A stretch of 64,000 nucleotides of DNA, taken from an uncultured Chloroflexia bacterium. GTDB taxonomy: Bacteria > Chloroflexota > Anaerolineae > Anaerolineales > UBA4823. The position numbers and the translations under genes are program-made. The stretch lies in assembly GCA_963714425.1 (NCBI GenBank), contig CAVQOI010000005.1, forward strand, positions 19,218 to 83,217. Reading direction: 5' to 3'. The notes below the pieces were generated by a model. That model ran no database searches. It was given only the letters and a program-made list of their open reading frames with translations, and was not told where the DNA came from. Within the stretch, counting starts at the first letter, position 1. Every line of letters begins with the position of its first letter. This document shows positions 18,827 through 60,352 of the stretch, piece after piece.

Positions 18827-19224
18827 TGGTGGAGATGGGGGGATTCGAACCCCCGTCCGAAAGATTCGTCCCGCGAATATCTACGAGCGTAGTCGGTTTA
18901 TGGGTGTCGCCGCCAGCGTCCAGACCGACAAAGGAGGCTGGCAGCCAGCCGCTCGGACCCGAAAGCCCTTCTTTCGCACGGTTAGCGGCGTCTGGTGCGG
19001 CACTCTATCTTTGTTTCGCCCGATCCTACCACCGGATAGAGGGCGGGGCAGGCGGACGCGGTCCTACGTTGAGGACCGGCTACTCTTGCGATCGCTTATG
19101 CAGCGAGCGGAAGGGCAGCGTAGTTTGTGCTTTTGGCACTTATGGTTTGCGCTGATTTAACGATCTCGGCGCCTATCGGCTCGCAATCCGGGGCCAGCTT
19201 CTCCCGTCGAAGCCTGTCATCCCC
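18827..19224 (-). ncRNA. ssrA: tmRNA (transfer-messenger RNA)
   Basis: The minus strand reads 5' GGGGATGACAGGCTTCGACGGG ... GGACGGGGGTTCGAATCCCCCCATCTCCACCA 3', a tRNA-Ala-like acceptor and T-arm. The internal tag frame is ...GCC AAA AGC ACA AAC TAC GCT GCC CTT CCG CTC GCT GCA TAA (..AKSTNYAALPLAA*). The exact resume codon is not certain. Confidence 0.9.
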
Positions 19225-20519: not shown

Positions 20520-21287
20520 TTATTCGCTTAGATCTCCAGGCGTAAGGTAATTTATACTGCGATGAGGGCGGACTTGGGCTTCGACATCGTCTTTTAAGAC
20601 ATTCCCTGATACGTGCATGAGCGTGTCCCCAAAATCAATATCTTTTCCCATGCTTGCGAGACAGGGGTAGTGATGGTGCAATAGACCAGCTTTTTCGCTA
20701 GCCTCATCCACCGAAACCCCAACCAGCTTTTCTGCAACGTAACGAGCACAGCCACAAACAGCATCTCTTTGTACTTGCACGGAGCTGATAGTACGTGATT
20801 TCTCGTCTACTTCAATTTCTAGATGAGGTTGACCGAAGTAGGACGCGAATTCGGAAATGAGTGGGCTCAGGTAGGTGATTCGCTGGCGGCGGGTGACGCC
20901 ATAATCGGTTTCGGTGAGCGAACATAGCGGTTTAGGCGTCGCGCAGACGACCCCAATATTATCCAGCCATCCTCGCAGCTGGCGTGCAAGGCCGCGGGGC
21001 AGCCAGGCTTCATTATCTACAGAGGCAATTACAGCTTGTGCGCCCGTCATTTTGGCGATATCTGGGATAAGCTCAGCAACTCCACGGTGCTCAGCAAACG
21101 AGAGAATGAGATCACTCTCAGGCAGTTCGGAAGGGAGGTAATCTTCGGGATAATCGAGAATTAGTGGAAATGTGGCAGGCGCCCGCCAGGTAACGATCTC
21201 CCAGGAGGGGGGTGCATGTTTCCGGATATTGTCAGCGTGACGGACCCCGTAATCACCTGAGATAATTGCCAAGATGCGCATAGTCAA
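20520..21287 (-). CDS. DUF166 / COG1810-like uncharacterised protein
   Basis: 255 aa. From memory, MRILAIISGDYGVRHADNIRKH...PKPLCSL...CGCARYVAEKL...HHHYPCLASM resembles the mainly archaeal DUF166 family. Conserved Cys/His suggest metal binding. Confidence 0.45.
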   Translation of the reverse strand: MTMRILAIISGDYGVRHADNIRKHAPPSWEIVTWRAPATFPLILDYPEDYLPSELPESDLILSFAEHRGVAELIPDIAKMTGAQAVIASVDNEAWLPRGLARQLRGWLDNIGVVCATPKPLCSLTETDYGVTRRQRITYLSPLISEFASYFGQPHLEIEVDEKSRTISSVQVQRDAVCGCARYVAEKLVGVSVDEASEKAGLLHHHYPCLASMGKDIDFGDTLMHVSGNVLKDDVEAQVRPHRSINYLTPGDLSE

Positions 21288-25037: not shown

Positions 25038-26969
25038 CTACGCACCTTGCTCCTGACCGGGCTCGAGCTGGTGGTCCAGTATTTCTGCGATGTCCAATAC
25101 CTGTACCTGCTCGCCTAAACCCTTGGAGCGAATGGCATCGTCAAACATGAGCAGGCAGTAAGGGCAAGCTGTAGCTATTGCATCCGCCTTAGCACTCAGC
25201 ACTTCATCTAAGCGACGATGATTGATGCGTGTCTCTGCATCCGTTTCCAACCACATCTGACCGCCCCCTCCGCCGCAACAAAAACTATTCTCCCCTTTAC
25301 GTGCGAGCTCTACTCGTTTGACCTTTGATTGATCGAGCAGCTGTCGGGGTTGGGCGTAAATATTGTTATAGCGCCCCAGGTAGCAGGAATCGTGGACAGC
25401 AAACCGGGCTTGTGCTCCATTGCCGTTAGCTGGGGACATCATGCCTGGCAGTTGCAATTCAGCTAAGAATTCGGTATAGTGTTGGACTTTGAAATTCCCG
25501 CCCATTTGCGGATATTCGTTCTTCAGCGTATTGAAGCAGTGTGGGCACTGGGTGACGATCCTATTGAACTTGATTTTTGAGAATACCTCAATGTTCTGTT
25601 CGGCGAAGGTCTGGAATAGATATTCATGTCCCATCCGCCTGGCAGTCTCTCCACAGCACATTTCATCAAAGCCAAGAATACCGAAATCAACACCAGCTTT
25701 GACCAGCAGGCGAGCAAACGATCGGGCAACTTTCTTATTGCGATCGTCGAAAGCGAAAGCGCATCCCAAGAAAAGCAGCACGTCCGTCTCGTCGCCTGGA
25801 GCTAATTCGCGTAATTCGAGCCCTTCCGCCCATGCTAGCCTGTCTTCTGGGGGCATCCCCCAGGGGTTGCCCTGACGCTCCATGTTTCGCAATGTGTCCG
25901 CGACCGATTTAGGTAGTTTTCCGGTTGTCAATGCCTGATAGCGGCGCAAATCGATGATGGCATCTACCGGGTTGACGAAGGCGGGGCACTTCACCAGACA
26001 GGCTCCACAGGTTGTGCACGACCAGGCGAAATCCTCCGGGAGAACCTCTCCTAAGATCTCACTGTCTGGGTGCCCATTAGGGCTGACCAAAGTATCGAGC
26101 ATGCCAGATCTGAGCGATTGGATCAGGTTTTTTGGGGTATATGCCATACCGCTGATGGTGGCGGGACAGGCCTCTTCACAGCGCCCACAGCGCACACAAG
26201 CATCGAAGGATAATAGCTGGATACTCTGGAATTCTGTGATCTTGCCCACACCCAGCTTCTCGGCATCATCAATATTTTCAATCTTGCTTAATGCACCCAA
26301 TTTTCTTCTCGGGTGAACGAGGATCTGTAGCGGTGTGAAAATTAGATGGCGCAGCTTGGTAAATGGGATGCTGGCAACCAAAGCCAAACCCAAGCCTATA
26401 TGGGAGTATAGAAAAACCGGGTGCAGACTGGCTGCCATTTCTGGTGTCATACCAAGGGTGCGTCCGAAGTGCGCAAGTGCGTTGCCAACCGGCGACCAGC
26501 TGGCCCAGGCAGGTGAGGTGGAAAGGAATCTGGCAGCTTCTGTGGCGAAGCCCACAAGCGGAAGAAGACCGAGTAGAGTGAGCGCGTAAGCATCATCCCA
26601 GCTATTTTCTAGCGTTTTCGGGCGTGCAATAAAGCGCCTGATAGCTGCCATGAAAACACCCAAAATTATGGCTACGCCAGCAATATCCATAATCAGCTCA
26701 TACCCAAGGTAGGCAGCGCCGCGTGGAAAAGGCAGCTCAACAAATGGGATAAAGAGCTGCATTTGCATCAAGTTGATGGCGGTTCCTAACACTTGAACGG
26801 TCACGCCCCAGAAGATAAAAGCATGCATGATGCCAGGGTAAATCTTCTTATAGAGGCGTACTTGACCGAGGGTATTGACGAAGAATTCTGATAAATACGG
26901 CTTGAGGGTTTCTAGCGATTTTCTTATATCCCATCTTCTAGGAGTCGTTGATAGCGTCTTTGTGGTCAT
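25038..26969 (-). CDS. Membrane-bound HdrD/DsrK-like Fe-S reductase (NarI-like TM domain, 2x[4Fe-4S], two CCG domains)
   Basis: N-terminal 5-6 TM region with conserved His (IMHAFIFWG, YSHIGLG, LRHLIF). Ferredoxin motifs CVRCGRCEEACP and CTTCGACLVKCP. CCG-type Cys motifs (LGCAFAFD...MCCG...CPHC and FCCGGGGG...CPYC). Confidence 0.75.
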   Translation of the reverse strand: MTTKTLSTTPRRWDIRKSLETLKPYLSEFFVNTLGQVRLYKKIYPGIMHAFIFWGVTVQVLGTAINLMQMQLFIPFVELPFPRGAAYLGYELIMDIAGVAIILGVFMAAIRRFIARPKTLENSWDDAYALTLLGLLPLVGFATEAARFLSTSPAWASWSPVGNALAHFGRTLGMTPEMAASLHPVFLYSHIGLGLALVASIPFTKLRHLIFTPLQILVHPRRKLGALSKIENIDDAEKLGVGKITEFQSIQLLSFDACVRCGRCEEACPATISGMAYTPKNLIQSLRSGMLDTLVSPNGHPDSEILGEVLPEDFAWSCTTCGACLVKCPAFVNPVDAIIDLRRYQALTTGKLPKSVADTLRNMERQGNPWGMPPEDRLAWAEGLELRELAPGDETDVLLFLGCAFAFDDRNKKVARSFARLLVKAGVDFGILGFDEMCCGETARRMGHEYLFQTFAEQNIEVFSKIKFNRIVTQCPHCFNTLKNEYPQMGGNFKVQHYTEFLAELQLPGMMSPANGNGAQARFAVHDSCYLGRYNNIYAQPRQLLDQSKVKRVELARKGENSFCCGGGGGQMWLETDAETRINHRRLDEVLSAKADAIATACPYCLLMFDDAIRSKGLGEQVQVLDIAEILDHQLEPGQEQGA

Positions 26970-27400
26970 GCCTCGCCTCCTACGTAGACCTCATCACCGG
27001 CCACCGATACAGCTAGTGGAGCTAGCGCCTTTGGAGGTGGACCTGAGATTACATGACCGTCCAAAGGATCAAAATATCCTTCATGGCATGGACATACGAT
27101 TTGAGATATTTCTGGATCCCATTTGCAGATGCAGGCGAAGTGCGTACATACTGCTGAATATGCTCGCAGACCCTCAGGGGTATTGACCACCAGGGCTGGA
27201 TAACGCCCAAAACGGACTGTCTTCGCCATCCCGACAGGAAGCTCTGAGACTTTGCTGACCAGCACCGGCTCTGATGGCATCTCCTCCAGATTGGGGGGGT
27301 AGAAGAAGGCAACCACGGGTCCAAATACCGCCGCCAGACCGGTGGCAGAGAGAGCTTTTTTGGCTAAGGAAAGAAATTCGCGGCGTGATATCTGGCTCAT
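26966..27400 (-). CDS. Rieske [2Fe-2S] protein with twin-arginine signal
   Basis: MSQISRREFLSL is a Tat motif. CTHFAC...CPCHEG is the Rieske CxH / CxxH pair. I prefer the start at 27400, which has a GGAGAGGTGA RBS. ATGA overlap with the downstream HdrD-like gene. Confidence 0.85.
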   Translation of the reverse strand: MSQISRREFLSLAKKALSATGLAAVFGPVVAFFYPPNLEEMPSEPVLVSKVSELPVGMAKTVRFGRYPALVVNTPEGLRAYSAVCTHFACICKWDPEISQIVCPCHEGYFDPLDGHVISGPPPKALAPLAVSVAGDEVYVGGEA

Positions 27401-27402
27401 GT

Positions 27403-27804
27403 CTAGCTCACCTCTCCCCAAATCGTTAATGCGATCAGCAGCACCATCCCAACAATGACAGCAATAAGCCGTGTCGTGTAGATTTTTTTGGATGTGTCCG
27501 GCTTACGGTCAAAGAAAGGCCAAAGCGCAATGATTCCGACCCCAATTACGGGTAATACTGCACCAATAGTTTTTGGGATGTATTTCAACAGCTGGTATAG
27601 AGCCAGGAAATACCATTCCGGTTTAACATGAGCGGGAGTGTCCATTGGGTCGGCGGGGTCGCCCAAACCGATCGGGACGAAGAAACCCAGGATTGCTATG
27701 GCAACTATCACGAAGGTAACGCCCAACACAACCCGGAATTCGGTGCGTACGTGATCAGGGTAGAAAGGAATAGATTCTTCTTCGGTCGCGTGGAGTTCAG
27801 CCAT
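27403..27804 (-). CDS. Cytochrome b C-terminal domain (b6f subunit IV-like)
   Basis: 133 aa with three TM segments and the PEWYFLALYQLLKYIP motif. Confidence 0.8.
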   Translation of the reverse strand: MAELHATEEESIPFYPDHVRTEFRVVLGVTFVIVAIAILGFFVPIGLGDPADPMDTPAHVKPEWYFLALYQLLKYIPKTIGAVLPVIGVGIIALWPFFDRKPDTSKKIYTTRLIAVIVGMVLLIALTIWGEVS

Positions 27805-27828
27805 TAATATCTCCTAGAATTTTAGCGC

Positions 27829-28833
27829 TCACAGCGGTTTAGCAACACCTTGACGGCGCACCATCAAGAAATGGGATCCCATAAAGACCAGGGTCATGAT
27901 CGGGATGACGATGACATGCAGACTGTAGAACCGGCTCAGAGTCAAGGCACCCACATCCCAACCCACACGCAGGAAAACAAGCGATAAGTTGCCAATCACT
28001 GGGATTGCTCCGGCGATCTCTGTACCCACCGTGGTTGCCCAAAATGCACGCTGGTCCCAGGGGAGCAGGTAGCCAGTGAAACCGAAGCCCAGGGTCAATA
28101 TAAGCAGGATCACACCACTCACCCAATTAAGCTCCCGAGGAGCCTTGAACGCCCCCATGACAAAGACTCGCAGCATGTGGGCAGTGCACATGACAATCAT
28201 GCCATTAGCTGCCCAATGGTGGATAGCCCGGATGGCAGCCCCAAAGCGCACCTGTGTCTCAATAAAGAGGATGCTTGCGTAAGCAGCCTCAGGTGTGGGT
28301 TTGTAGTAAAAAGCCAGCATGATACCGGTGATAGCCTGGACGACAAAAAGGAATGCGGTAATGCCTCCCAGACAGTACCACCAGCGTAAGGCAAATGTCG
28401 GGACTGGCTTGTTCAGAACTTTGGAAAGCGGATCACGGATGGAGTAGCGTTCATCGACCCACTCGAAGGCACGGAGCTGGAGCGGTTTCCAGGGAGCGCG
28501 GGTGACCCAGGCGCTGGCGCTGCGATAAACTCCCATTACGAACACCAGCCCGACCATTCCGAAGAACGTCCACCGCACCAGTGGTGTCCAGAGACCTTTA
28601 TTCTCTCCGCTGATATGGCAGTGCAAGCACGGGTCTCTTTCCGGCGGCGGGATTGTGGCAGCGGCACTCGGGTCATGAGATACATTCTGAACGATTGACC
28701 AGGCTGGTATGGAGGGGTCTGGCGCGGTCGCCATCGCCTTGCCATGGGCGTTCATGAAGATTGCCCCAGCAAGCCCAAGGACAAGCAAAACAGTGAAGGA
28801 TAGTAGGAGGATGCGCGGGGAACGATTTGTCAT
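27829..28833 (-). CDS. Cytochrome b (b6-like N-terminal domain) with an N-terminal extension carrying a c-type haem motif
   Basis: Cyt b core (WWYCLGGITAFLFVVQAITGIMLAFYY, AIHHWAANGM, GYLLPWDQRAFWATTV, SLHVIVIP). The N-terminal TM helix is followed by CLHCH (CxxCH). Confidence 0.8.
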   Translation of the reverse strand: MTNRSPRILLLSFTVLLVLGLAGAIFMNAHGKAMATAPDPSIPAWSIVQNVSHDPSAAATIPPPERDPCLHCHISGENKGLWTPLVRWTFFGMVGLVFVMGVYRSASAWVTRAPWKPLQLRAFEWVDERYSIRDPLSKVLNKPVPTFALRWWYCLGGITAFLFVVQAITGIMLAFYYKPTPEAAYASILFIETQVRFGAAIRAIHHWAANGMIVMCTAHMLRVFVMGAFKAPRELNWVSGVILLILTLGFGFTGYLLPWDQRAFWATTVGTEIAGAIPVIGNLSLVFLRVGWDVGALTLSRFYSLHVIVIPIMTLVFMGSHFLMVRRQGVAKPL

Positions 28834-31112: not shown

Positions 31113-31967
31113 CTATAGGAAACTTTCTAATAAAGAACCTACCTCAGCCATAGAAAATACAGGACCATCTACACAAACCAGTTTCTCACCCAGGTTGCAG
31201 CGACCGCATTTTCCGATGCCACAATGCATGCGCGCTTCAAGAGTTACATAGTTCTGGTCAGGTGTGAAGCCGAGCTTCTCAACGAGGATCTTGTTCACAA
31301 AGTGAATCATGATGGGCGGGCCGCAAGTAATCGTGATTGCGTTCTCTGGTACGGGTGCGACTCGATCCAGCAAATCCGTAATCAGGCCGACGTGATGGTC
31401 CCAATGGGAATCGGGGACATCTACGGTGAGATGCAATTGGGTGTCGGGAGCAGAGCGCCAGCTTTGGTACTCGTCAGTAAAAACCAGCAAGGAGGGGTGT
31501 CTTGCTGCCCAAAGGATCGTCAGGTGGCCGTAGTCCTGGCGGTTATTCAAGACATGTTGAATAACCGGGCGCAAGGGTGCCCCGCCTATCCCACCACCGA
31601 GGACGACCAGATCTTTGCCTTTAAAATCCTCCATGGGGAACCAATTCCCAAGAGGACCACGCACACCTATGATATCGCCAACACCCAGCTCGTGCATCTC
31701 TGTTGTAACCGATCCCAGGCGTTGAACGGCAAACTCCAGGGGACCACCATTTGGAGCAGAGGCAAAACCAAAAGCTGCCTCACCCACGCCAAATGCAGAT
31801 ACGAACGCGAACTGCCCAGGTTTATAGGAGCGAAAATGCTCGCTCCCTCCGTTTAGCATTTGCACTCCAAAGAGCTTGATCTCGGACCCAAGGTCTCTGG
31901 TGAAAACGAGTTTACCCAGGTAGGGCTTCATCGGATTATCGTGGTTATTTTCCGTATCTCGCGTCAT
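31113..31967 (-). CDS. FAD/NAD(P)-binding oxidoreductase with C-terminal [2Fe-2S] (FlxA / HydG / AsrB-like)
   Basis: Ferredoxin-reductase-type fold (PGQFAFVS, GPLG, VVLGGGIGGAPL). C-terminal CGIGKCGRCNLGEKLVCVDGPVF. Confidence 0.7.
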   Translation of the reverse strand: MTRDTENNHDNPMKPYLGKLVFTRDLGSEIKLFGVQMLNGGSEHFRSYKPGQFAFVSAFGVGEAAFGFASAPNGGPLEFAVQRLGSVTTEMHELGVGDIIGVRGPLGNWFPMEDFKGKDLVVLGGGIGGAPLRPVIQHVLNNRQDYGHLTILWAARHPSLLVFTDEYQSWRSAPDTQLHLTVDVPDSHWDHHVGLITDLLDRVAPVPENAITITCGPPIMIHFVNKILVEKLGFTPDQNYVTLEARMHCGIGKCGRCNLGEKLVCVDGPVFSMAEVGSLLESFL

Positions 31968-32971
31968 GAGGCCACCTCCGCCATGTCAGCAAGCACTTCT
32001 CCAATATCGATATTGACAGGGCACATCTCAATACAGCGTCCACAGCCGGTACATGCCATTGGACCGTACTGCTCTGCATAGTAGTGAAACTTACACATAA
32101 AGCGATTACGCAGACGTTGGCTTGTGGAGGCGCGTGGGTTATGACCCCCAGCAATCCGACGATAGGAGGGACTGGTGCAAGTATCCCAACAGCGAATGCG
32201 CTCGTATTCGGATTTACCGTCACCACCCGTTAGCGCTTCATCGCGCACGATGAAACACCTGCAGGTAGGACATACATAACCACATATGCGGCAGCTCAGA
32301 CATCGCTCTGCCAAACGCTCCCAGTAAGCATCCGTGAAACGCGCAGACCAGCTTATCGTCTGGGGAGATGGGATCTTGGATAGATCCCGCCTATCGATGA
32401 TGGGTGGTACAACCACCTCGCCAGTAACTGGTTTGAGGCGATCTGATAGGAGCTGGTTGCCTTTTTCAGTCACAATTTGGGCGAGGTAACCTCCATCAGT
32501 TTCGGTAAGCATGATGTCCATGTCCTGAGGATCATCTGGAAACCCTCCAACACTGGTACAAAAGCAGGTTTCGCCCATCTCGCGGCATGCGAGGCCAATC
32601 AGGGTTGTATTTTCCCGACGCTTGGCATAGTACGGATCAGATGGCTCCATCAGGAACATCTCATCCAGGATCTTCATCCCCCTGGCGTCACATGGGCGGA
32701 CACCAAAGATGACGACCTCACCTTCAGGCAAGGTCTCGGTAAGCTGAAGCTCTTGCCCGTTTATGTGGATATGTAGCAGCGCCTCCGTTGCAGGGAAGAA
32801 CACTTCTTTTATGGATAGTGCAGGGCGCGAAAACTTCCAGGCGATTTCCGACGTGGTTCCCACCTGGCGGTAACGAAGGACACCTTCATCCCGGGTGGGA
32901 GCAACAAGATTCGATTCTTGTGCTAAGTTATCGAGTATTGCGGAGAGATCTGCTTGGGATAGGAACTTCAT
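31964..32971 (-). CDS. 4Fe-4S dicluster protein (FlxB/C, HydB, AsrA-like)
   Basis: CLSCRICGYVCPTCRCF and CTGCGRCIEMCPVNI. 4-nt overlaps with both neighbours. Confidence 0.65.
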   Translation of the reverse strand: MKFLSQADLSAILDNLAQESNLVAPTRDEGVLRYRQVGTTSEIAWKFSRPALSIKEVFFPATEALLHIHINGQELQLTETLPEGEVVIFGVRPCDARGMKILDEMFLMEPSDPYYAKRRENTTLIGLACREMGETCFCTSVGGFPDDPQDMDIMLTETDGGYLAQIVTEKGNQLLSDRLKPVTGEVVVPPIIDRRDLSKIPSPQTISWSARFTDAYWERLAERCLSCRICGYVCPTCRCFIVRDEALTGGDGKSEYERIRCWDTCTSPSYRRIAGGHNPRASTSQRLRNRFMCKFHYYAEQYGPMACTGCGRCIEMCPVNIDIGEVLADMAEVAS

Positions 32972-34329
32972 GGCAGCTGCTCCTCTCCGTTCAGGATTGT
33001 GACGAATGGTGATGGGACTGGCTCCAGACCGGCACGGTGCCCGAATACTGTCTGCATCTCCTGGATGAGTTTCCCGTTGAGCAAGCTAATCGGGATCTCC
33101 ATCGGACACACACGCTCGCACTCGTGGCAATCCACGCAACGACCAGCCAGATGATATGCTCTTCCCAGGTGGAAGGTGCGTTTCTCATTTGCATTGATGC
33201 CCATGCCTACCCAGAGAGAGTCATCTCGCTCGTACAAGCAGGTGGGGCAGGCACACATCGGACAGACCTGGCGACAAGCATAGCAGCGGATACATCGATC
33301 GAACTGCGACAGCCAATATTCCATACGCTCTGGAGCTGACTTAGCATCCAGCTCGGAAAGCCGCGGGGGAATCACAAGCTGAGGATGCACTTCTGGGGCA
33401 TCGCCGACCAGGGTGTCGTATACAATGGGTATACGCTGATCACATTCCTGGCATCGCTCCTGGAGACTGCAATTGTCGCTGTTCACTTCTCGCATCCCCT
33501 GGCAGGCCACTCCAATCACATGAACCTGACCCCGCTCAAACCGATTTTCAGCGAGCAACACGTTTATCGCCCGGCTGTCACACGGTTTTGCCACGATGGC
33601 GATGGGTTTTTTGGGTTCTGATCCTGCCTTTGTCCCCGGAGGGTAGAGGGTCGAGTGCAGGTAAGTCGTCAGGTTATGGGAGCAGTCCTGGTTCCAAACT
33701 AGGCGCTGGACCTCTGCCGGATTGCGGACAAACGCTGGGCGTGTGCGCCCATGCGTACCAGACTCATAGCCTATTACAACGCTCACTTCGCCTGTGGAAA
33801 GCAACTGGCGCGCTGTATCCTGGATCAACACGGCCACATGGGATTCATCAGGAGGCGCAACCAGTCTGGCTGTCGAAGTCTCTGTATTGAAATTAGTTCT
33901 TACTGGATCGTGGTCTCGCTGGCTTAATCTCCATTTCACTGGTCCAAGTGAACGCACCTTGTCTGTGAACTCGTTTACGATGCGACTGAAGCGCTCACCT
34001 TCAGAAGCGGAAACGTAATCGAGCCGCAGCCTTTCGGGCTCCAGCCCGGTAAAAGCCATGAGCGATTGGAGAATTGGCAGGCGCTTGGCTGTGCGATGAT
34101 TGCCAGTGTCATAATGGCATTCACCGACGTGGCAGGCGAGGACAAGCACACCATCTGCCCCTTGGTCAAAGGTACGCATGATTATCTCGGGAGCGACACG
34201 TCCAGAACAGGGGACGCGCACAGCACGCACATTTGCTGGAGATTTCAGCCGAGCGATACCAGCTGTATCAGCGCCTGTATAGCTACACCAGGTACATAGA
34301 AATGCAATGATCTTAGGTTCGTATGGCAT
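32968..34329 (-). CDS. MvhD/FlxD-domain protein fused to an Fe-S (2x[4Fe-4S]) module
   Basis: The N-terminus KIIAFLCTWCSYTGADTAG...VRVPCSGRVAPEIIMRTF..GADGVLVLACHVGECHY is an MvhD/FlpD domain. The C-terminus has CIRCYACRQVCPMCACPTC and CVDCHECERVCP. Confidence 0.7.
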   Translation of the reverse strand: MPYEPKIIAFLCTWCSYTGADTAGIARLKSPANVRAVRVPCSGRVAPEIIMRTFDQGADGVLVLACHVGECHYDTGNHRTAKRLPILQSLMAFTGLEPERLRLDYVSASEGERFSRIVNEFTDKVRSLGPVKWRLSQRDHDPVRTNFNTETSTARLVAPPDESHVAVLIQDTARQLLSTGEVSVVIGYESGTHGRTRPAFVRNPAEVQRLVWNQDCSHNLTTYLHSTLYPPGTKAGSEPKKPIAIVAKPCDSRAINVLLAENRFERGQVHVIGVACQGMREVNSDNCSLQERCQECDQRIPIVYDTLVGDAPEVHPQLVIPPRLSELDAKSAPERMEYWLSQFDRCIRCYACRQVCPMCACPTCLYERDDSLWVGMGINANEKRTFHLGRAYHLAGRCVDCHECERVCPMEIPISLLNGKLIQEMQTVFGHRAGLEPVPSPFVTILNGEEQLP

Positions 34330-34340
34330 TCCACGACCTC

Positions 34341-37300
34341 CTAAGTACTTACGATTCCCGGGACTATCGGCATGGAAGTGGCAGGCACATCCATATCCAG
34401 AGCTCCGAGCATCTCATTAATGATCTGGCGATCATCGTAGTGGATCAGGCTCATGGCTTTATTTGGACAAGCTGCAGCGCAAGTACCACAGCCTTTGCAC
34501 AGGAAGCCTTTCACTACAGCGACTCCATCCTGAAGCTCGACCGCCCCATAAGGGCAAGCGTAGGTGCATTGCCCGCAACCCGCACAGCGGACTTGATTGA
34601 CAACAGCAATGGATGGATCCAAAGCGATCGTACCCTGGTCTATCAGCGAGAGAGCAGCAGCGGCTGCGGCTCCTGCCTGGGCGACACTATCGGGGATATC
34701 CTTCGGGCTCTGGCAGGCGCCGGCCAGGTAGATCCCTTCGTTCGCCGTTTCAACGGGAGCGAGCTTGGGGTGGCGCTCGAGAAAGAAACCATCGCGGCTG
34801 CGGCTAAGACCAAAAGTGTTGGCGACGCGGGAGGAATCATCGCGCGGCTCGAAACCGGTAGCGAGGATAACCATATCCACTTCGACATGGTCTGGCTGGT
34901 TATAGAAACTCTCATCCCAGGAGACACGTAGCTTTCCATTCACACGCTCGACGCTCCGTACTCTCCCGTGGTAGAAGTTGACACCCTTCTTTCGTGTGCG
35001 GTTATAGAACTCCTCATAATCTTTGCCGAAGGTGCGCATATCTCGATAAACTTCGTGGACTTCGGCGTCCACATAGTCATGTACCAGCTGGGCAAATTTC
35101 AAGGAATACATGCAACATGCACGCGAGCAATACTCATTGGTTTCCGTGTCGCGGCTACCAATACAATGCACAATGGCGACACTTTTCGGAGGCTTGCCAT
35201 CGGTAAGCAGCACTTTTCCACTGGTTGGACCGCTGGCGTTGATCAGTCGCTCAAATTCCATCGCAGAGACAATGTTGTCAAGCTTGCCATAGCCAAGTTC
35301 GGGAATGCGGGCAGGATCGAAATCCTTAAAGCCAGTCGCCAGAATGATCGTACCGACCTTAATGTCGATGGTCTCATCCTGCATATTGTGATCGATTGCG
35401 CCGCGCTCGCACGCTGCCAGGCACTCCAGGCACTCTGAACAGATGCCACAGCGCAAACATCGCTCAGCCTCGCTCAGCGCCTCTTCCTCGCTCATGGTCA
35501 GGTCGACCTCGCGGAAATTGTGAACGCGTTCTTGCACGGGGATGCTTCGTATGGGGACACGCCCAGCCAAGGAGGCCTCCCCGTTGTCAAACTTTTGCTC
35601 GATCTCTTCCTGGGTCAACTGGACTGTAGGCAGCTTGCGTGGTTCCTGAAGGCCGTTTTCGCCGCGCAGATAACGGTCAATACTGCGTGCGACGCGGTGA
35701 CCTTCGCCGATGGCATCGACAACAAAGAAAGTAACGCCGCGATGGACGTCGCCAGCGACAAATACACCTCGTTGTGTGGTCATCATATCCGCATTGCTCT
35801 GGATGCCCACGGGGTAGCGTGTATTGATGCTGCCATCGGGTGGCAGGAAGGAGAAATCCGGTCCCTGACCAATTGCCCATATGACCAGGTCGGCGGGAAG
35901 AATATGCTCGGTGCCAGGGATTTCATCCATATCCGGACGCCCCTGCTTGAAGCCTCGGAAGTTGACCTCGACACTGCGCACACCAAGAATCTTATCTTCT
36001 TTCACCACAATTTCTTTGAAGGTCCTGGAGGGGCATAAGATCACGCCTTCCTCTTCAGCAACACCGACCTCCCAGTCGAAACCAGGCATCTCGCCGCGCG
36101 GTTCCAAACAAGCCATACGTACCTCATCCGCGCCTAGACGCAGGACAGTTCGGGCAGTGTCTAGGGCGACATTTCCGCCACCCAGGACCACGACTTTCTT
36201 ACCGCTTAAGTCGATCTTCTCACCGAGTGTAACCTGGCGAAGCAGTTTCAAGCTGAGCCAGTTGTCCGGATGGTTCGAGTTACGGATAGGCAGCTTTTTG
36301 GCGGAATGAGCGCCAGTCGCAACAAGAACGGAGTGATAGCCGTTCTCGAGTAGGGAGGGGATGTCATCTACCCAGGCGTTCAGGCGAAGATCGACGCCCT
36401 CCTCAATTACCTGCTTGATCTCCCAATCGAGCATATCTGTTGGCAGCCGGTGAGGGGGGATACCGACGCGCATCATCCCGCCTGCAACGGGGAGTGCATC
36501 GAAGACGGTAACCTGGTGTCCTAATCGCACCAAGTCAAGAGCGGCAGTAAGCCCTGCTGGACCTGCCCCGATAATGGCGACCTTTTTCCCAGATTGTGGG
36601 TGGTTGTGCTGGAACGGGGTGCCAACCAAACTTTTATCACGCATCTGGGGTAATTCATGCCTGTGCTCGTACGCCCAGTCTGAGACGAAGCGCTTTAAGC
36701 CCATGATGTTCACGGATTCATCATACTTGCCTCGGCTGCACATATCCTCGCAGTGGTGATTGCAGACCCGCCCGCAGACAGATGGGAAAGGATGCTCCCT
36801 GCGAATCGCCCAATAGGCGTCTGCATAGCGTTTTTGACCAATGAGAGCGATATATCCCTGCGCGCGCTGGTCGGTAGGGCAGGCACTCCTACAAGGAGCA
36901 ACGCCTAGTTTTTGGATGGCGTAAGCCCCCGGAACTGCCTGGGCGGAGAATCGGTAAGATGCTTTGCGTGTGCTGAGGCCCATATCGAACGGGTTGGAGA
37001 TGTCAACAGGGCAAACTTCTGCGCATTTCCCGCATCCAGTGCATTGGGATTCATCGATATAACGTGATTTGCGGTGCACGCGCACATCGAAATTCCCAAC
37101 ATAACCAGAAACCGATTGGACCTCGCTGTAGCTCAGTAAGCTGATGTTTTCGTGGCGTCCAACGGACACCATTTTTGGTGTGAGTATTCAAGCCGCGCAG
37201 TCAAGCGTGGGGAAGGTCTTATATAGCTGAGCCATATGCCCACCGATGCTTGGCTCACGCTCTACAAGGTATACGTGCTTCCCAGCGTCTGCGAGCCTGA

Positions 37301-37781
37301 GGGCAGCCTCGATCCCAGCAATGCCTCCACCAACCACTAGAGTAGATGGGAGCATGTCAACATTGCGCTGCTCCAGCGGCTCGTGATAGCGTACTCGCCG
37401 GACAGCAGCTTCGACCAAACTCATGGCTTTATTGGTCGCCATATCCCGGTCGTCGATCACCCAGGAGCAATGCTCACGGATATTTGCCATCTGGAAGAAG
37501 AAAGGATTGAGTCCGCCTTCCATGCAGGCTTTTCTAAAGGTCGGCTCATGCATCAACGGGGTGCAAGAAGCCACCACAACCCGGTTCAAACCGTACTCAC
37601 GAATATCCTCTTTGATCAGATCCTGGCCCGGATCGGAGCACATATAGGTGTAATCTTTAGCTAGAATGACACCATCCAGAGTCCGGGCGTGGTCAGCGAC
37701 CGACTTCACGTCCACCGTGGCGGCAATATTGGTGCCGCAATGACAGACGTACACGCCGGTTCTGATTTTGGAGAGGTTCAT
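34341..37781 (-). CDS. hdrA: HdrA-like flavoprotein with in-frame UGA (predicted Sec198) and an inserted GltD/NfnB-like NAD(P)H module; read-through product 1146 aa
   Basis: Track ORFs 37188..37781 and 34341..37172 are in the same frame, separated only by TGA (37188-37190): TLDCAA-TGA-ILTPKMVSVGRHENI. The N-terminus has VVGGGIAGIEAAL (FAD). An insert at about 35460-36930 has CRSACP...CGRVCNHHCEDMC plus IIGAGPAGLTAA and VVLGGGNVALD, which is GltD-like. Confidence 0.7.
37153..37171 (-). promoter_or_regulatory. Candidate bacterial SECIS hairpin for the long hdrA
   Basis: The minus strand reads U GGUGUCC GUU GGACGCC A, an 8-bp stem with a 3-nt G-containing loop, starting 16 nt after the UGA. Confidence 0.5.
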
Positions 37782-39820
37782 GCCGGCACCTCCTCTAAAG
37801 GCATTGTGCGCAATGAGTTGAGCAACGCGCCTTCTATTTCAGCCATAACCTGCTCATAAGTAAACCCATGCTGGAGAGCAGCGCCAGCCGGACAAGCGCC
37901 CGCACATGCGCCGCATCCCTTGCAAAGAACTTCATTGATGAGAGCCACCTGCCTCCCTTCAAAGTCAACCATCTCGATGGCACCGTATGGGCAAAGCCCC
38001 TCGCAGGTGCGGCAGCCACCGCATTTTTCAGGGATTACGTAAGTAGTAAATGGCTCCAATGTGACATGCCCAGCATCCAGCATGGATAAGACACCCGCAG
38101 CAGCGGCACCACCCTGGGCAACGCTATCGGGGATATCCTTAGGTCCCTGGCAGGTCCCCGCAAGGAATACTCCATCGGTGGCAGTTTCCACGGGGGCTAG
38201 CTTGGGATGCTTCTCTAAGAAGTACCCGTCGGGGCTTAGACTAATGCCGAAAGTCTTGGCTACCTCAAGCTGGTCGCTATGCGGTTCGAGCCCAGTGCTA
38301 AGCACCACCATATCCACCAGGACATCATCAGGCTGCCCGGTAAAAATATCTATGGTTGAGACTTTCAGGTGCCCATTCTGCTGCGAGACATGAATTTTCT
38401 CTTCGAAGCGATGGAAATGAACACCATTTTGGGCAGCGCGAGTGTAGAAACCTTCATAATCCTTACCGAAGGTACGCATATCCCGGTAAAACTGGTAGAC
38501 TTCCGCATCCACGTAATGACGGATAAGCTCTGCCAGTTTGAGTGAGTACATACAGCAAACCCGCGAGCAGTATTCATGATGTTGCAGATCGCGGCTGCCG
38601 ACACAATGCAGGATTGCGATCCGCTCAGGCTTGCGCCCGTCTTTGAGCACCACTTGACCATTTGTGGGTCCACCGGTATTGATCATGCGTTCGAATTCCA
38701 TGCCGGAGACTACATTGTCGAGCTCTTTATAACCATATTGGGGAGCTTTGTGGGGGTCGAAATCTTGAAATCCAGTTGCCAGGACAATGCCACCGACTTC
38801 GACATCTATTAATTCATCCTTTTGCTCAAAGTCGATCGCCTGGCGTTGGCAGAACTTCTCGCAGGCACGACATTTGCCTCGTAGGAAATATGCACAGTTC
38901 TCAGTATCGATTATCGGTACGCGCGGCACAGCTTGGGCAAAGGGGAAGTAGATCGCCGGGCGATTGCCTAATCCCATATCAAATTCGGAGGGGATCTTTT
39001 TCCATGGGCATTTTTCAACGCATGCGCCGCAGCCAGTGCAATTTTCTTCGTTTACATAGCGCGCTTTTTTACGGATCTTCACGTTGAAATTTCCCACATA
39101 TCCCGATACCGATTCAACCTCACTGTTGCTCAGCAGAGTGATGTTTTCGTGGCGTCCCACGGACACCATCTTCGGAGTGAGAATTCAAGCCGCGCAGTCT
39201 AAGGTTGGAAATGTTTTGTACAACTGCGCCATGTGCCCGCCGATACTGGGCTGGCGCTCAACTAGATAGACATGCTTACCTGCGTCCGCCATGCGAAGGG
39301 CAGCTTCAATACCGGCGATCCCGCCACCAACGACTAACGCTGCCTGCTTGACGGTAACCTGCCGGCTGGTGAGCTCTTGGTTTAAGGCTACCCGGCGCAC
39401 GGCTGCAGACACGAGGGCTTTTGCTTTCTGGGTTGCCAGGACCATATCATCGGAAACCCAGGAGCAATGCTCGCGTATGTTTGTCATCTGGAAGAGAAAT
39501 GGGTTGAGCCCTCCCTCAGCGCATGCCCGCCGAAAGGTGGTCTCGTGCATCAGGGGTGAGCATGAGGCAACCACAACTCGATCTAAGCCCTCATTTTGTA
39601 TATCATCCTTGATGAGAGCCTGACCTGGATCAGAACACATGTAGGCGTAGTGGCGCGAGACTGCAACACCGTCGAGCGTGGATGCAAAATCAGCGACTGC
39701 AGCAACATCCACCATGCCTGCGATGTTTGTACCGCAGTGGCAGACATAAACGCCGATCTTTTCCCCGCAACCAGCGCGCAGAGAGGGTGGTCCGGTTTGG
39801 GAGCTCTGCTTTGGCTTCAT
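37778..39820 (-). CDS. hdrA: HdrA-like flavoprotein with in-frame UGA (predicted Sec212); read-through product 680 aa
   Basis: Track ORFs 39185..39820 and 37778..39169 share one frame, separated only by TGA (39185-39187): TLDCAA-TGA-ILTPKMVSVGRHENI. It has VVGGGIAGIEAAL, four ferredoxin-type Cys motifs, and an AAGGAGG RBS upstream of the ATG at 39820. Confidence 0.7.
39150..39168 (-). promoter_or_regulatory. Candidate bacterial SECIS hairpin for the short hdrA
   Basis: The minus strand reads U GGUGUCC GUG GGACGCC A. Stem and spacing (16 nt after the UGA) are identical to the paralog; only the loop base differs. Confidence 0.5.
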
Positions 39821-43188: not shown

Positions 43189-44719
43189 TCAGTCTCCGAA
43201 TTTAATCCCCTGCGCAAGGGGTAAATCCTTCGACCAGTTGATTGTATTGGTCTGGCGGCGCATGTAGGCTTTCCATGCATCCGACCCGGATTCTCTACCT
43301 CCACCTGTCTCTTTCTCACCACCGAAAGCACCGCCAATCTCCGCGCCCGAAGTACCGATATTTACGTTGGCGATGCCACAATCCGAACCAGCGACAGAGA
43401 GGAATTGCTCGACCTGGCGCATTGAATCTGTAAATATGGCGCTTGAGAGACCCTGGGGGACATCGTTATGTATTTGGATGGCTTCGTCTAATGATTGGTA
43501 TTCTAATAAATATAGGATAGGCGCGAAGGTCTCTCGGCGGACAATATCTGTCTGAGCGGGCATTCTAATGATTGTAGGCTCAACGAAATTTGGTCCGACC
43601 TCGGGGAGCATGTTCCCGCCAAATAACACTTCCCCGCCATCCGCTCTCGCCTGATCAATCGCATCCATCATCTCTTCTACGGATGTGTTTACTACCAGAG
43701 GCCCCATGAGGACATCGGGGTGAAACGGATCACCGATATTTACTTGTTTGTAGGCTGCGACCAGACGCTTTTCCAGCTCTTTTTCAATGGATTTGTGAAC
43801 AATGATGCGGCGCGTGGAAGTGCAGCGCTGCCCGGCGGTCCCCACAGCGCCAAACAGGATCGCGCGAGTTGCCAATGCCAGGTCTGCATCTTCCGCTATG
43901 ATGATTGCATTGTTTCCGCCAAGCTCGAGGATTGACCGCCCAAAACGACGGGCGACTACTTCGGAAACGTGCCGTCCAATCTGCGTGGAGCCTGTAAATG
44001 AGATTATCGGCAAGCGTGGATCATTGAGGAGCAACTCGCCAACCTCCCGCCCCGAGCCGATGACTAGGTGTAAAAATGCCATGCAAGCCATGATCGGCCA
44101 TCACCTGGTTGCAGATATGCTGGGTAGCGATTGCGGTAAGAGGTGTATAGGAGGACGGTTTCCACACAACGGTATCACCGCAAACAGCTGCTAAGGCAGC
44201 ATTCCAGGACCACACTGCGGTGGGAAAATTGAATGAAGTGATTAATCCCAGGACGCCTGCAGGATGCCACTGCTCGTACATGCGGTGGGAAGGGCGCTCT
44301 GAATGCATGGTCAGGCCATAGAGCTGGCGGGAAAGTCCGACAGCGAAATCTGAGATATCGATCATCTCCTGAATTTCGCCAGAGCCTTCGACGCGGATCT
44401 TGCCCATTTCCAAGGTAACCAGCTCCGCCAACGGCTCTTTGAGCTGGCGCAATGCATTCCCAAGATCTCGTACGAAATCCCCCCGCTTCGGTGCAGGAGT
44501 CTCCCGCCAGGTAAGGAAAGCTTCGTGTGCTGTTCTTGCAACGGTCTCATACGTGCTTGGCGTAGCCTGAAGGACGTTCGCGAGCGGCTCACCTGTGGTC
44601 GGATTGAAGGATACCAGTACTTTTCCATTCGGGTCAGATAGCCAGCCGTCTTGACCGGTGCAAGCACCGGGGTTTGTCTCATTGAGATTGAGTTTCTTCA
44701 GCAGTGGATGCATGATCAC
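43189..44719 (-). pseudogene. ALDH7-type aldehyde dehydrogenase (alpha-aminoadipic semialdehyde / piperideine-6-carboxylate dehydrogenase-like) interrupted by a 1-nt frameshift
   Basis: The N-terminal part (44021..44719) and the C-terminal part (43189..44091; [22 protein letters not shown], ...[10 protein letters not shown]) are in different frames. The shift maps to a T5 run in the coding strand (A5 at 44072-44076). Removing one base restores [16 protein letters not shown]. Confidence 0.75.
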
Positions 44720-55155: not shown

Positions 55156-56130
55156 TCACTGCGTGTAATGCTGGCTGGCATCATCGAGTGCGGAGACTTC
55201 AGCCTCGGTTAACCGCCATCCTAATGCACCAAGATTCTCAACGGCTTGCTCAACAGTCTTTACGCCCGGGATTGGGACGGCGCCTTTGCAGATTACCCAA
55301 TTGATGGCGACCTGGGAGGCTGTCTTGCCCTCATGGGCTGCCCCGATTTCGTGCAGTAGGCGGATGAGTGGGTCAATTTTAGAGAGCAATTTTGCAGGAT
55401 ACCTGCGACCACGTATGCCAGGGAGCGGATTCCTTGCGCTGTACTTTCCTGATAAAACACCTTGTGCGATAGGACCGTAGGCAATGCAAGTTATTTCGAG
55501 ATCTTTGCAGAGTTCAAGCATCCCATTTCTTTCGATTCTGCGGTCTAACAGGCTGTACTCGACTTGATTTGAAGAAAGGAAATACCCGCGTTTTATCAGT
55601 ACGGCGTGGGTGCGATTCATCTGTTTGGCGTTGTAATTTGAAACACCAACGGCTCCCACTAGACCTTCATCCATAGCATCTGCCAGCGCTGAAGCCCAGC
55701 TCTCGATTGGGATGGGTGGAAAAGGTTGGTGAATCTGGTACAAATCAATTATGGGTATTTTTAGCCGTCTCAAGCTGCCCTGTAAGGCATTGATCAGGCT
55801 CCTGTTTCTCAGTCGCCACGGGTAAGGATAGAATTTACTCGCCACAATTATGGGAGGTGCTTCATCTGGGAGAGATTGGATAAATTGTCCCAACAATCTT
55901 TCCGATCGTCCCTGCCCATATATCTCAGCTGTATCGAAGAAGTTAATACCAGCATCGACGCAGGTTTCAAAAGCCTTTTTTACGTGAGATTCGCCATAAT
56001 CCTTTCCGTACCCCCAATAAAAGCGGTCCCCCCATGCCCAGGCACCTATCCCCATTAGAGGGATCTGGATGGTTGATTTTCCCAGGAATATCTCGCCAAA
56101 CTCAGGGTTCAAATTGTGGGCTCCTTGCAT
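55156..56130 (-). CDS. Aldo/keto reductase
   Basis: GIGAWAWG, FFDTAEIYG, KF...P and LYQIHQP motifs. I prefer the start MQGAHNL at 56130. The track ORF extends to 56292, inside the upstream gene. Confidence 0.8.
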   Translation of the reverse strand: MQGAHNLNPEFGEIFLGKSTIQIPLMGIGAWAWGDRFYWGYGKDYGESHVKKAFETCVDAGINFFDTAEIYGQGRSERLLGQFIQSLPDEAPPIIVASKFYPYPWRLRNRSLINALQGSLRRLKIPIIDLYQIHQPFPPIPIESWASALADAMDEGLVGAVGVSNYNAKQMNRTHAVLIKRGYFLSSNQVEYSLLDRRIERNGMLELCKDLEITCIAYGPIAQGVLSGKYSARNPLPGIRGRRYPAKLLSKIDPLIRLLHEIGAAHEGKTASQVAINWVICKGAVPIPGVKTVEQAVENLGALGWRLTEAEVSALDDASQHYTQ

Positions 56131-60276: not shown

Positions 60277-60352
60277 TGGGGTGCCTGAGGAGATTTGAAC
60301 TCCCAACCACCTGATCCACAGTCAGGTGCTCTGCCATTGAGCTACAGGCACC
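60277..60352 (-). tRNA. tRNA-His (GTG anticodon) with genomically encoded G-1 and CCA
   Basis: Manual cloverleaf: G(-1) GTGCCTG TA GCTC AATGGCA GAGC A CCTGA CTGTGGA TCAGG TGGTT GGGAG TTCAAAT CTCCT CAGGCAC C CCA. Confidence 0.9.

Follow-up and report, generated by a model that had tools for sequence, protein, structure and literature searches.

Putative selenocysteine insertion hairpins within the coding regions of two tandem hdrA genes of an uncultured Chloroflexota bacterium

The 64,000-nucleotide (nt) stretch of contig CAVQOI010000005.1 from an uncultured Chloroflexia bacterium that was analyzed here (the window) carries two adjacent hdrA genes on the minus strand, an upstream copy B and a downstream copy A. 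Both genes contain an in-frame UGA codon, and the same hairpin is found 16 nt downstream of each UGA. The question raised by this locus is whether the hairpins direct insertion of selenocysteine (Sec) at the UGAs or whether their identity only reflects the protein that is encoded. A preliminary description of the window called the hairpins SECIS-like (SECIS, Sec insertion sequence) and wrote out the sequences that follow the UGA in copy A (37190..37153) and in copy B (39187..39150) as read from the minus strand. The letters given are right, but they run to CAC, while the 38-nt intervals end at CCA and leave the final C outside. The five differences described between the copies are also there: four are in third codon positions of the spacer that separates the UGA from the hairpin, one is the last base of the loop, and the stem has none. 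Judging from the sequence comparisons presented below, each hairpin is very probably a bacterial SECIS (bSECIS) element that lies in the coding sequence of an hdrA selenoprotein gene.

In both genes, homology to HdrA continues unbroken on both sides of the TGA, as revealed by Pfam and PDB searches. The UGA site aligns with Cys197, and the preceding Cys with Cys194, of M. thermolithotrophicus HdrA (5ODC; DCAAU and DCSIC, respectively, at 193-197), which places the UGA at the second position of a CxxU motif. The two TGAs share the context TLDCAA*ILTPKMVSVGRHENI. The 120 best protein relatives of the window HdrA comprise 117 full-length proteins, all of which have Cys at the UGA position (117/117), and three fragments of 463 amino acids (aa). 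The fragments (P0004, P0019 and P0070) are the window gene itself and two Sec-type relatives shortened by gene callers. Cys197 is the ligand given by one HdrA subunit to the N-terminal [4Fe-4S] cluster of its partner (PMC9012536), and HdrA is a recognised CxxU selenoprotein of bacteria and archaea (PMC9312934, PMC13188914). Since TGA otherwise ends more long open reading frames (ORFs) in the window than any other stop codon does (24 of 54), reassignment of the genetic code is ruled out. Other in-frame TGAs in the window were rejected as belonging to spurious antisense frames or gene boundaries (for example, 55158..55156).

The hairpin stem is formed by UGGUGUCC and GGACGCCA, which make eight pairs, one of them a U.G wobble, around a 3-nt loop. 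Folding of the two 38-nt segments yielded the same 8-bp hairpin with an energy of -11.6 kcal/mol in both cases; the 19-nt hairpin alone has an energy of -11.3 kcal/mol. According to the bSECIS model of Zhang & Gladyshev (summary in PMC13188914), the apical loop is 3-9 nt long and has a G in its first two positions (mostly GG or GU), the upper stem contains 4-16 bp, the UGA-to-loop distance is 16-37 nt, and the minimum free energy (MFE) is -7.5 kcal/mol or lower. Both copies agree with the model on all four counts, having a 3-nt loop that starts with GU, 8 bp, a distance of 24 nt and an energy of -11.3 kcal/mol; the loop G thus lies within the bSECIS range, as had been proposed. Likewise, the location of the hairpin inside an ORF, directly 3' of an in-frame UGA aligned with Cys, is that of a bSECIS. 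A covariance model derived from 25 relatives but not from the window sequences retrieved exactly two strong matches from the 64-kb window: 39147-39171 in copy B (44.6 bits, E = 1e-13) and 37150-37174 in copy A (44.1 bits). The third-best match scored only 11.8 bits. A longer structure or a lower helix that includes the UGA was considered and rejected, as RNAalifold applied to the region between -45 and +90 found only the 8-bp hairpin to be shared.

Four of the eight pairs hinge on synonymous positions, and for these the earlier statement that the stem codons are free to vary holds; the peptide M-V-S-V-G-R-H determines the other four. Given that the two copies use the same codon at a fraction of 0.40 of identical residues, the probability of finding five stem codons unchanged is about 0.01. 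The evidence for RNA function provided by the two copies alone is therefore modest, and the case must rest on other genomes.

We scanned a genome collection for the pattern D-C-x-x-TGA-[IV]-L-x-P-[KR]-M and obtained at least 120 Sec-type loci; the counts of Sec-type sequences given here and below refer to the matches listed. These loci come from Anaerolineae, Dehalococcoidia, Desulfobacterota, Firmicutes, several candidate phyla and a few archaea. Together with the window they provided 127 segments, including 28 unique sequences of the window class, M[VAT]SVG[RQ]H. For the Cys type, metagenomes were scanned for TGY with the same peptide after it; this provided 120 Cys-type loci, with 62 unique sequences that encode M-V-S-V-G. 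This set and the matched operons described below served as controls in place of same-genome paralogues, since no Cys-type hdrA paralogue was found inside the 120 Sec-type loci listed.

In the 28 Sec-type sequences, the stem codons hardly vary: GTG is used in 26/26 cases, TCC in 28/28, GGA in 27/28 and CGC in 22/23. The entropy of third positions in the stem is 0-0.2 bits, compared with 1.9-2.0 bits in the 62 Cys-type sequences. In the same Sec-type sequences, third-position entropy reaches 1.6-1.8 bits at the Thr and Pro codons of the spacer (0.9-1.8 bits across spacer codons) and 1.33 bits at the Val codon of the loop. All three free pairs are formed in 26 of 26 Sec-type but only 2 of 61 Cys-type sequences (Fisher p = 3.7e-20). 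The mean number of pairs formed, out of eight, is 7.8 and 5.2, and the mean MFE of the 19-nt segment is -10.5 and -2.8 kcal/mol, respectively. The difference in plain MFE over nt 10-54 (-11.8 for Sec-type and -9.05 kcal/mol for Cys-type) is significant but modest, because GC-rich coding sequence folds anyway; the comparison was based on position-specific pairing and on a contiguous-stem metric instead.

These data bear on the simplest alternative, namely that the conserved peptide MVSVGRH and a preference for certain codons are the only constraints and that the hairpin is incidental. The peptide is indeed highly conserved and supplies half of the pairs by itself, the Cys-type genes retain a mean of 5.2 of the eight, and one Cys-type locus, L182, has identical codons. 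Yet every synonymous codon occurs in the stem of Cys-type genes that encode this peptide, and the free pairs are almost never all formed there, while codons of the spacer and the loop vary in the very Sec-type sequences whose stem does not. Codon bias was rejected as the source of the stem codons, since codon usage in the window gives a joint probability of 0.0047 per copy for the four of them. We consider an incidental hairpin extremely improbable. The comparison shows that the stem is under purifying selection at the RNA level only where the codon is UGA. The preliminary description had named Cys-type hdrA genes with the same invariant nucleotides as the finding that would point to pure protein-level constraint; the stem codons of Cys-type genes proved to be saturated and the hairpin is lost in orthologous operons, so that the SECIS-like reading is upheld.

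The orthologous operons provide the closest match to the window. The nearest Cys-type proteins are 69-73% identical to the window HdrA, and three Cys-type operons (L242, L243 and L245; proteins P0002, P0003 and P0005, with 69-72% identity) have the same five-gene order; a further locus, L241, is a single gene. In the three operons, a near-identical peptide, MV[SA][VA]GRH, follows the Cys, but TGC or TGT stands in place of TGA, the codons of the stem are scrambled and no hairpin is left (6/8 pairs). At the homologous nucleotides, L241, L242, L243 and L245 form 6-7 of the eight pairs with energies of -2.8 to -7.8 kcal/mol, compared with -11.3 kcal/mol in the window. Most Cys-type genes have Gln at a position at which loci L241-L245 have kept Arg (CGN), and the retention of a residue that is rare in Cys-type genes suggests that these loci are Sec-to-Cys revertants. 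Remnant SECIS-like structures are known in former selenoprotein genes (PMC1794560), and L241-L245 as well as L182 could be revertants with a remnant SECIS, as in the other families described there. Part of the 3' arm (GGACGCCAC) is kept in L242.

Rare changes within the window class retain the pairing. In L082 (UGACGUCC...GGACGUCA), a G-C pair is replaced on both sides by A-U, and U-G is replaced by C-G. In L028 (UGGCGUCC), a U-G to C-G change comes at the cost of a Val-to-Ala substitution, and in L071 the use of GGG for GGA converts U-A to U-G. Five Sec-type sequences with the peptide MVSVGQH have one G.G mismatch. Class-wide, cell pairing is 97.7%. Of the changes that retain the pairing, only one is double-sided.

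A hairpin occupies the corresponding position in all bacterial clades of Sec-type hdrA, but its sequence and the encoded peptide change from clade to clade. It is GGAUGUC-GGUC-GACAUCC (peptide MLDVGRH) in Desulfobacterota, UGACGC-GGC-GCGUCA (MVDAAR[HQ]) in other Anaerolineales and UGGCCUC-GGU-GAGGUCA (MASVRSH) in Dehalococcoidia. Hairpins at +22..+36 that have 6 or more contiguous bp and a G in the first two loop positions are present in 94% of the 121 bacterial Sec-type and 6% of the 111 Cys-type sequences (Mann-Whitney p = 1e-36). Loops across the 121 bacterial sequences are GGUC, GGC, GUN, GGU, GGA and AGGN. Two of the four archaeal Sec-type loci are essentially unfolded at this place, which fits the location of archaeal SECIS elements in 3' untranslated regions known from the literature. 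One locus, L029 (JAPDJY010000052.1), comes from a metagenome-assembled genome labelled as a Thermoproteota archaeon and has a TGA at the Sec position of hdrA (about 1974-1976) with no hairpin after it. Archaeal use of Sec is described in reviews as limited to Methanococcales, Methanopyrales and Asgard (PMC13188914); L029 is either a mis-binned contig or a Sec-using lineage that has not been reported.

Could the identity of the two stems be due to recent duplication or to gene conversion between the adjacent copies? The copies are indeed adjacent paralogues, and the 15 nt just before the UGA are identical, too. However, they are only about 55% identical in amino acid sequence around the site, with 40% identical codons at identical residues, and their spacers and loops differ. 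Where other genomes have the tandem pair, identity to the corresponding copy of the window is 76-82% for upstream and 75-77% for downstream copies, whereas two copies from one genome are about 55% identical; each window copy is thus nearer to its orthologue elsewhere than to its neighbour. Identical-codon fractions are 0.33-0.47 throughout, and synonymous sites are saturated. No tract of raised identity beyond the stem and no grouping of copies by genome were seen, and the same stem is present in more than 20 other genomes. It thus follows from these alignments that the duplication is old, that the stem has been retained in both paralogue lineages, and that the hairpin was kept independently rather than by conversion. 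Recent duplication or conversion has next to no probability. A different situation is found in CAZNMJ010000034.1 (L068/L023), in which two Sec-type hdrA sites separated by 3.3 kb show 100% identity across 177 codons of flanking sequence. In contrast to the old tandem pair, these sites either were duplicated very recently or are an artefact of assembly.

Several observations weigh against the assignment of the hairpins to bSECIS elements, the contribution of the peptide to the stem being one of them. Formal covariation within the window class is weak among the matches listed, with five of the eight pairs invariant, and the observed values were reached in 18/500 and 10/500 shuffles; the argument therefore rests on suppressed synonymous change instead. 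The z-scores of the 38-nt folds against shuffled sequences are -2.9 and -1.2, the latter for copy B. In a thermodynamic fold of 135 nt, the pair probability of the hairpin is 0.24 in copy B and 0.42 in copy A; competing pairings presumably count less during translation, because the ribosome would hold the upstream sequence. No match of the window to any curated SECIS family of Rfam was obtained at the gathering score or at E ≤ 10, which carries little weight because the sequences of bSECIS elements are not alike (PMC13188914). Local Rfam matches near the hairpins were to small nucleolar RNA and microRNA models with E > 2 and were dismissed as chance. Homologous Cys-type sites score 10-35 bits with the covariance model, the top score of 35 bits being that of L182, a TGC locus with the exact hairpin codons; such a match is about what is expected by chance, around 1 in 60. 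Finally, no selA, selB, selD or tRNA-Sec was found in the 64-kb window and no tRNA-Sec in 54 related 8-kb loci.

The lack of Sec machinery in the window is also a point in favor of two further alternatives. According to one of them, the UGA terminates translation to give a two-piece HdrA, with the hairpin, of which a conserved AUG five codons further on is part, serving termination-reinitiation, pausing or mRNA stability, or else the UGA is read by near-cognate Cys or Trp suppression that the hairpin stimulates without Sec machinery. There is an AUG 16 nt after the UGA, from which gene callers predict the 463-aa product (P0004, P0019 and P0070). However, the Met after the UGA is equally conserved in all Cys-type genes and is therefore not a dedicated start, and the sequence before the AUG (CACACCAAAAAUG) contains no purine-rich stretch that resembles a Shine-Dalgarno element. 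The position of the UGA is precisely that of the cluster-ligand Cys, at which this family is known to use Sec, the small loop starting with G and the spacing are typical of SelB-dependent elements, and analogous hairpins are present in every bacterial clade listed. We regard termination or suppression as distinctly improbable. According to the other alternative, the elements are decaying relics: Sec decoding has been lost and the genes are pseudogenes with a remnant SECIS, of the kind reported in the literature (PMC1794560). Against this, the frames are intact and show strong homology for 469 codons (copy B) and 949 codons (copy A) past the UGA, the stem is under purifying selection across 28 sequences in which neutral sites are saturated, and the stem has decayed in lineages that switched to Cys. 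Decay is thus a very improbable explanation.

With the hairpins interpreted as bSECIS elements, the following sequence of events can be proposed, in which SelB binding, delivery of Sec-tRNA and competition with release factor 2 are taken from the established bacterial Sec pathway. The hairpin, located 16 nt 3' of the UGA, would still be folded when the ribosome arrives at this codon. By analogy, the C-terminal domain of SelB would bind the apical G-U-containing triloop on the 8-bp stem and, competing with release factor 2, bring Sec-tRNA(Sec) to the A site. Upon insertion of Sec, translation would run on through the 469 codons that remain in copy B or the 949 in copy A. The inserted residue would be the U of CxxU, equivalent to Cys197, donated to the N-terminal [4Fe-4S] cluster of the partner.

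Coordinates of the two genes, their UGA codons, spacers and hairpins, and of the genes downstream of copy A, are collected in Table 1.

Table 1. Features of the hdrA locus (positions in the 64-kb window)
Feature	Position	Strand	Description and evidence
hdrA copy B, upstream gene	37778..39820	-	680 codons including one in-frame UGA; translation, Pfam, PDB search
hdrA copy A, downstream gene	34341..37781	-	1146 codons including one in-frame UGA; translation, Pfam
UGA (putative Sec codon), copy B	39185..39187	-	DCAAU, CxxU motif; aligned with Cys197 of HdrA 5ODC_A
UGA (putative Sec codon), copy A	37188..37190	-	DCAAU
Spacer, copy B, 16 nt	39169..39184	-	codons I-L-T-P-K plus A of AUG; synonymous sites variable
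Spacer, copy A, 16 nt	37172..37187	-	
Putative SECIS hairpin, copy B	39150..39168	-	5' arm 39168..39161 UGGUGUCC, loop 39160..39158 GUG, 3' arm 39157..39150 GGACGCCA
Putative SECIS hairpin, copy A	37153..37171	-	5' arm 37171..37164 UGGUGUCC, loop 37163..37161 GUU, 3' arm 37160..37153 GGACGCCA
MvhD/FlpD+Fer4 gene	34329..32968	-	Pfam; 3' of hdrA copy A
Fer4_22 protein gene	32971..31964	-	Pfam
NAD_binding_1/DHODB Fe-S protein gene	31967..31113	-	Pfam

The TGA stop of copy B overlaps the ATG of copy A. Copy B contains Pyr_redox_2, FAD and Fer4 domains and matches HdrA 5ODC_A over residues 21-666 (E = 4.7e-214). Copy A is an HdrA with a GltD/NfnB-like insert of ~400 aa (Fer4_20 + Pyr_redox_2, about aa 294-693), and the same fusion, 1132-1136 aa long, is present in orthologous operons. 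The N-terminal cluster domain and the UGA-encoded ligand equivalent to Cys197 are kept in both copies. The three genes downstream of copy A (31113..34329, minus strand) probably belong to the same operon as the hdrA pair; no in-frame TGA was found in them.

Constraint in Sec-type genes also seems to extend to the codons around the UGA (37176-37202 and 39173-39199, minus strand, and relatives of the window class). The codon that follows the UGA is AUA or AUU and never AUC in Sec-type relatives, while it is AUC in 42 of 62 Cys-type sequences. Codon -1 is only GCU or GCC, codon -3 is UGU in 23 of 28 Sec-type relatives, and the 12 nt directly before the UGA are identical between the copies of the window. 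Such flanks may have a context effect on recoding versus termination.

Other features of the window were recorded as well. A transfer-messenger RNA (tag AKSTNYAALPLAA; 18827-19224, minus strand) and tRNA-His(GUG) (60277-60351, minus strand) are the only structured RNA genes detected in it. A weak match to NF041372 (DUF166 family (seleno)protein DfsP) at 20523-21287 (minus strand) scores 60 bits with a cut-off of 200 and contains no in-frame TGA. A second redox cluster at 25041-28833 (minus strand) encodes a 643-aa HdrD/TfrB-like protein with a weak match to NF045663 ('dicluster-binding protein near Sec'), a cytochrome b6/ExtP-like protein that reaches 258 bits with a cut-off of 290 ('selenite/tellurite reduction operon' cytochrome) and a 151-aa ORF of no assigned family. 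An aldehyde dehydrogenase gene (L-piperidine-6-carboxylate dehydrogenase-like, NF050084) at 43189-44719 (minus strand) is split over two frames, with ORF 44719..44021 matching positions 2-176 of the profile and ORF 44091..43189 matching positions 181-474. The split indicates a frameshift, due either to a pseudogene or to an assembly error.

A bSECIS in HdrA is a known mechanism in a known selenoprotein family, and the present data confirm rather than change known biology. What is new is the lineage, an Anaerolineae-type Chloroflexota, the hairpin with a GUN triloop and the clean natural control provided by Sec-type and Cys-type genes, in which the same peptide with and without a UGA reveals selection at the RNA level on a SECIS located in a coding region. 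There are practical consequences, too. Gene callers split both hdrA genes at the UGA, and the database holds a 463-aa fragment only; the same splitting affects more than 100 hdrA genes of Anaerolineae, Dehalococcoidia, Desulfobacterota and other phyla. Recognition of the SECIS restores two predicted full-length selenoproteins of 680 and 1146 residues, which look like parts of a flavin-based electron-bifurcating complex of the Hdr/Flx type, and would mark the organism as a selenium user. The set of clade-specific hairpins could improve bSECIS models.

It is possible, though less likely than not, that the hairpin class as a whole records both the birth and the loss of a SECIS with almost no change in the protein, and that the tandem pair forms a heterodimer with reciprocal Se ligation. 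The stem may have been written into M-V-S-V-G-Q/R-H, a peptide that Cys-type Chloroflexota HdrA already has: four pairs may have come free with the peptide and three or four from synonymous choice, and one substitution of Gln by Arg (CAG to CGC) may have closed the last mismatch. The Sec-type variants with MVSVGQH and a 5+2-bp stem would then be the intermediate, and the Arg-bearing Cys-type loci L241-L245 would be revertants that carry an imprint of the RNA in their protein. Since both copies keep the N-terminal cluster domain and the ligand Sec197, a heterodimer of this kind is conceivable; if it exists, an HdrA heterodimer with two reciprocal Se-ligated [4Fe-4S] clusters would operate in a bacterial flavin-based bifurcating complex.

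How do these elements compare with known systems? In the prototype bSECIS, that of E. coli fdhF, the loop contains GGUC, its critical G and U lie at about +23/+24, and there is a bulged U. The window hairpins resemble this element and other bSECIS elements in being stem-loops inside the ORF, just 3' of the UGA, with a small apical loop in which G is followed by U. They differ in having a 3-nt GUN triloop without a bulged U and a loop G at +28, and there is no resemblance in primary sequence. As for the protein, 16 bacterial Sec-HdrA were counted by Zhang et al. in 2006, and tandem hdrA-hdrA and hdrA_N-insert-hdrA_C arrangements were described in Deltaproteobacteria (PMC1794560). The window genes share with the Sec-HdrA of Deltaproteobacteria/Firmicutes and Methanococcales (PMC1794560) the family, the CxxU position, the tandem genes and the presence of an insert in one copy. 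We found no published Sec-HdrA from Anaerolineae-type Chloroflexota in the literature. The differences from the known Sec-HdrA (PMC1794560) lie in the host, an Anaerolineae-type Chloroflexota, in the operon partners, which are MvhD/FlpD-Fer4, Fer4_22 and an NAD-binding Fe-S protein instead of frhD-frhG-frhA/glpC, and, when the clades analyzed here are compared, in the hairpin sequence, which is specific to the window class and unlike the stems of Desulfobacterota, other Anaerolineales and Dehalococcoidia.

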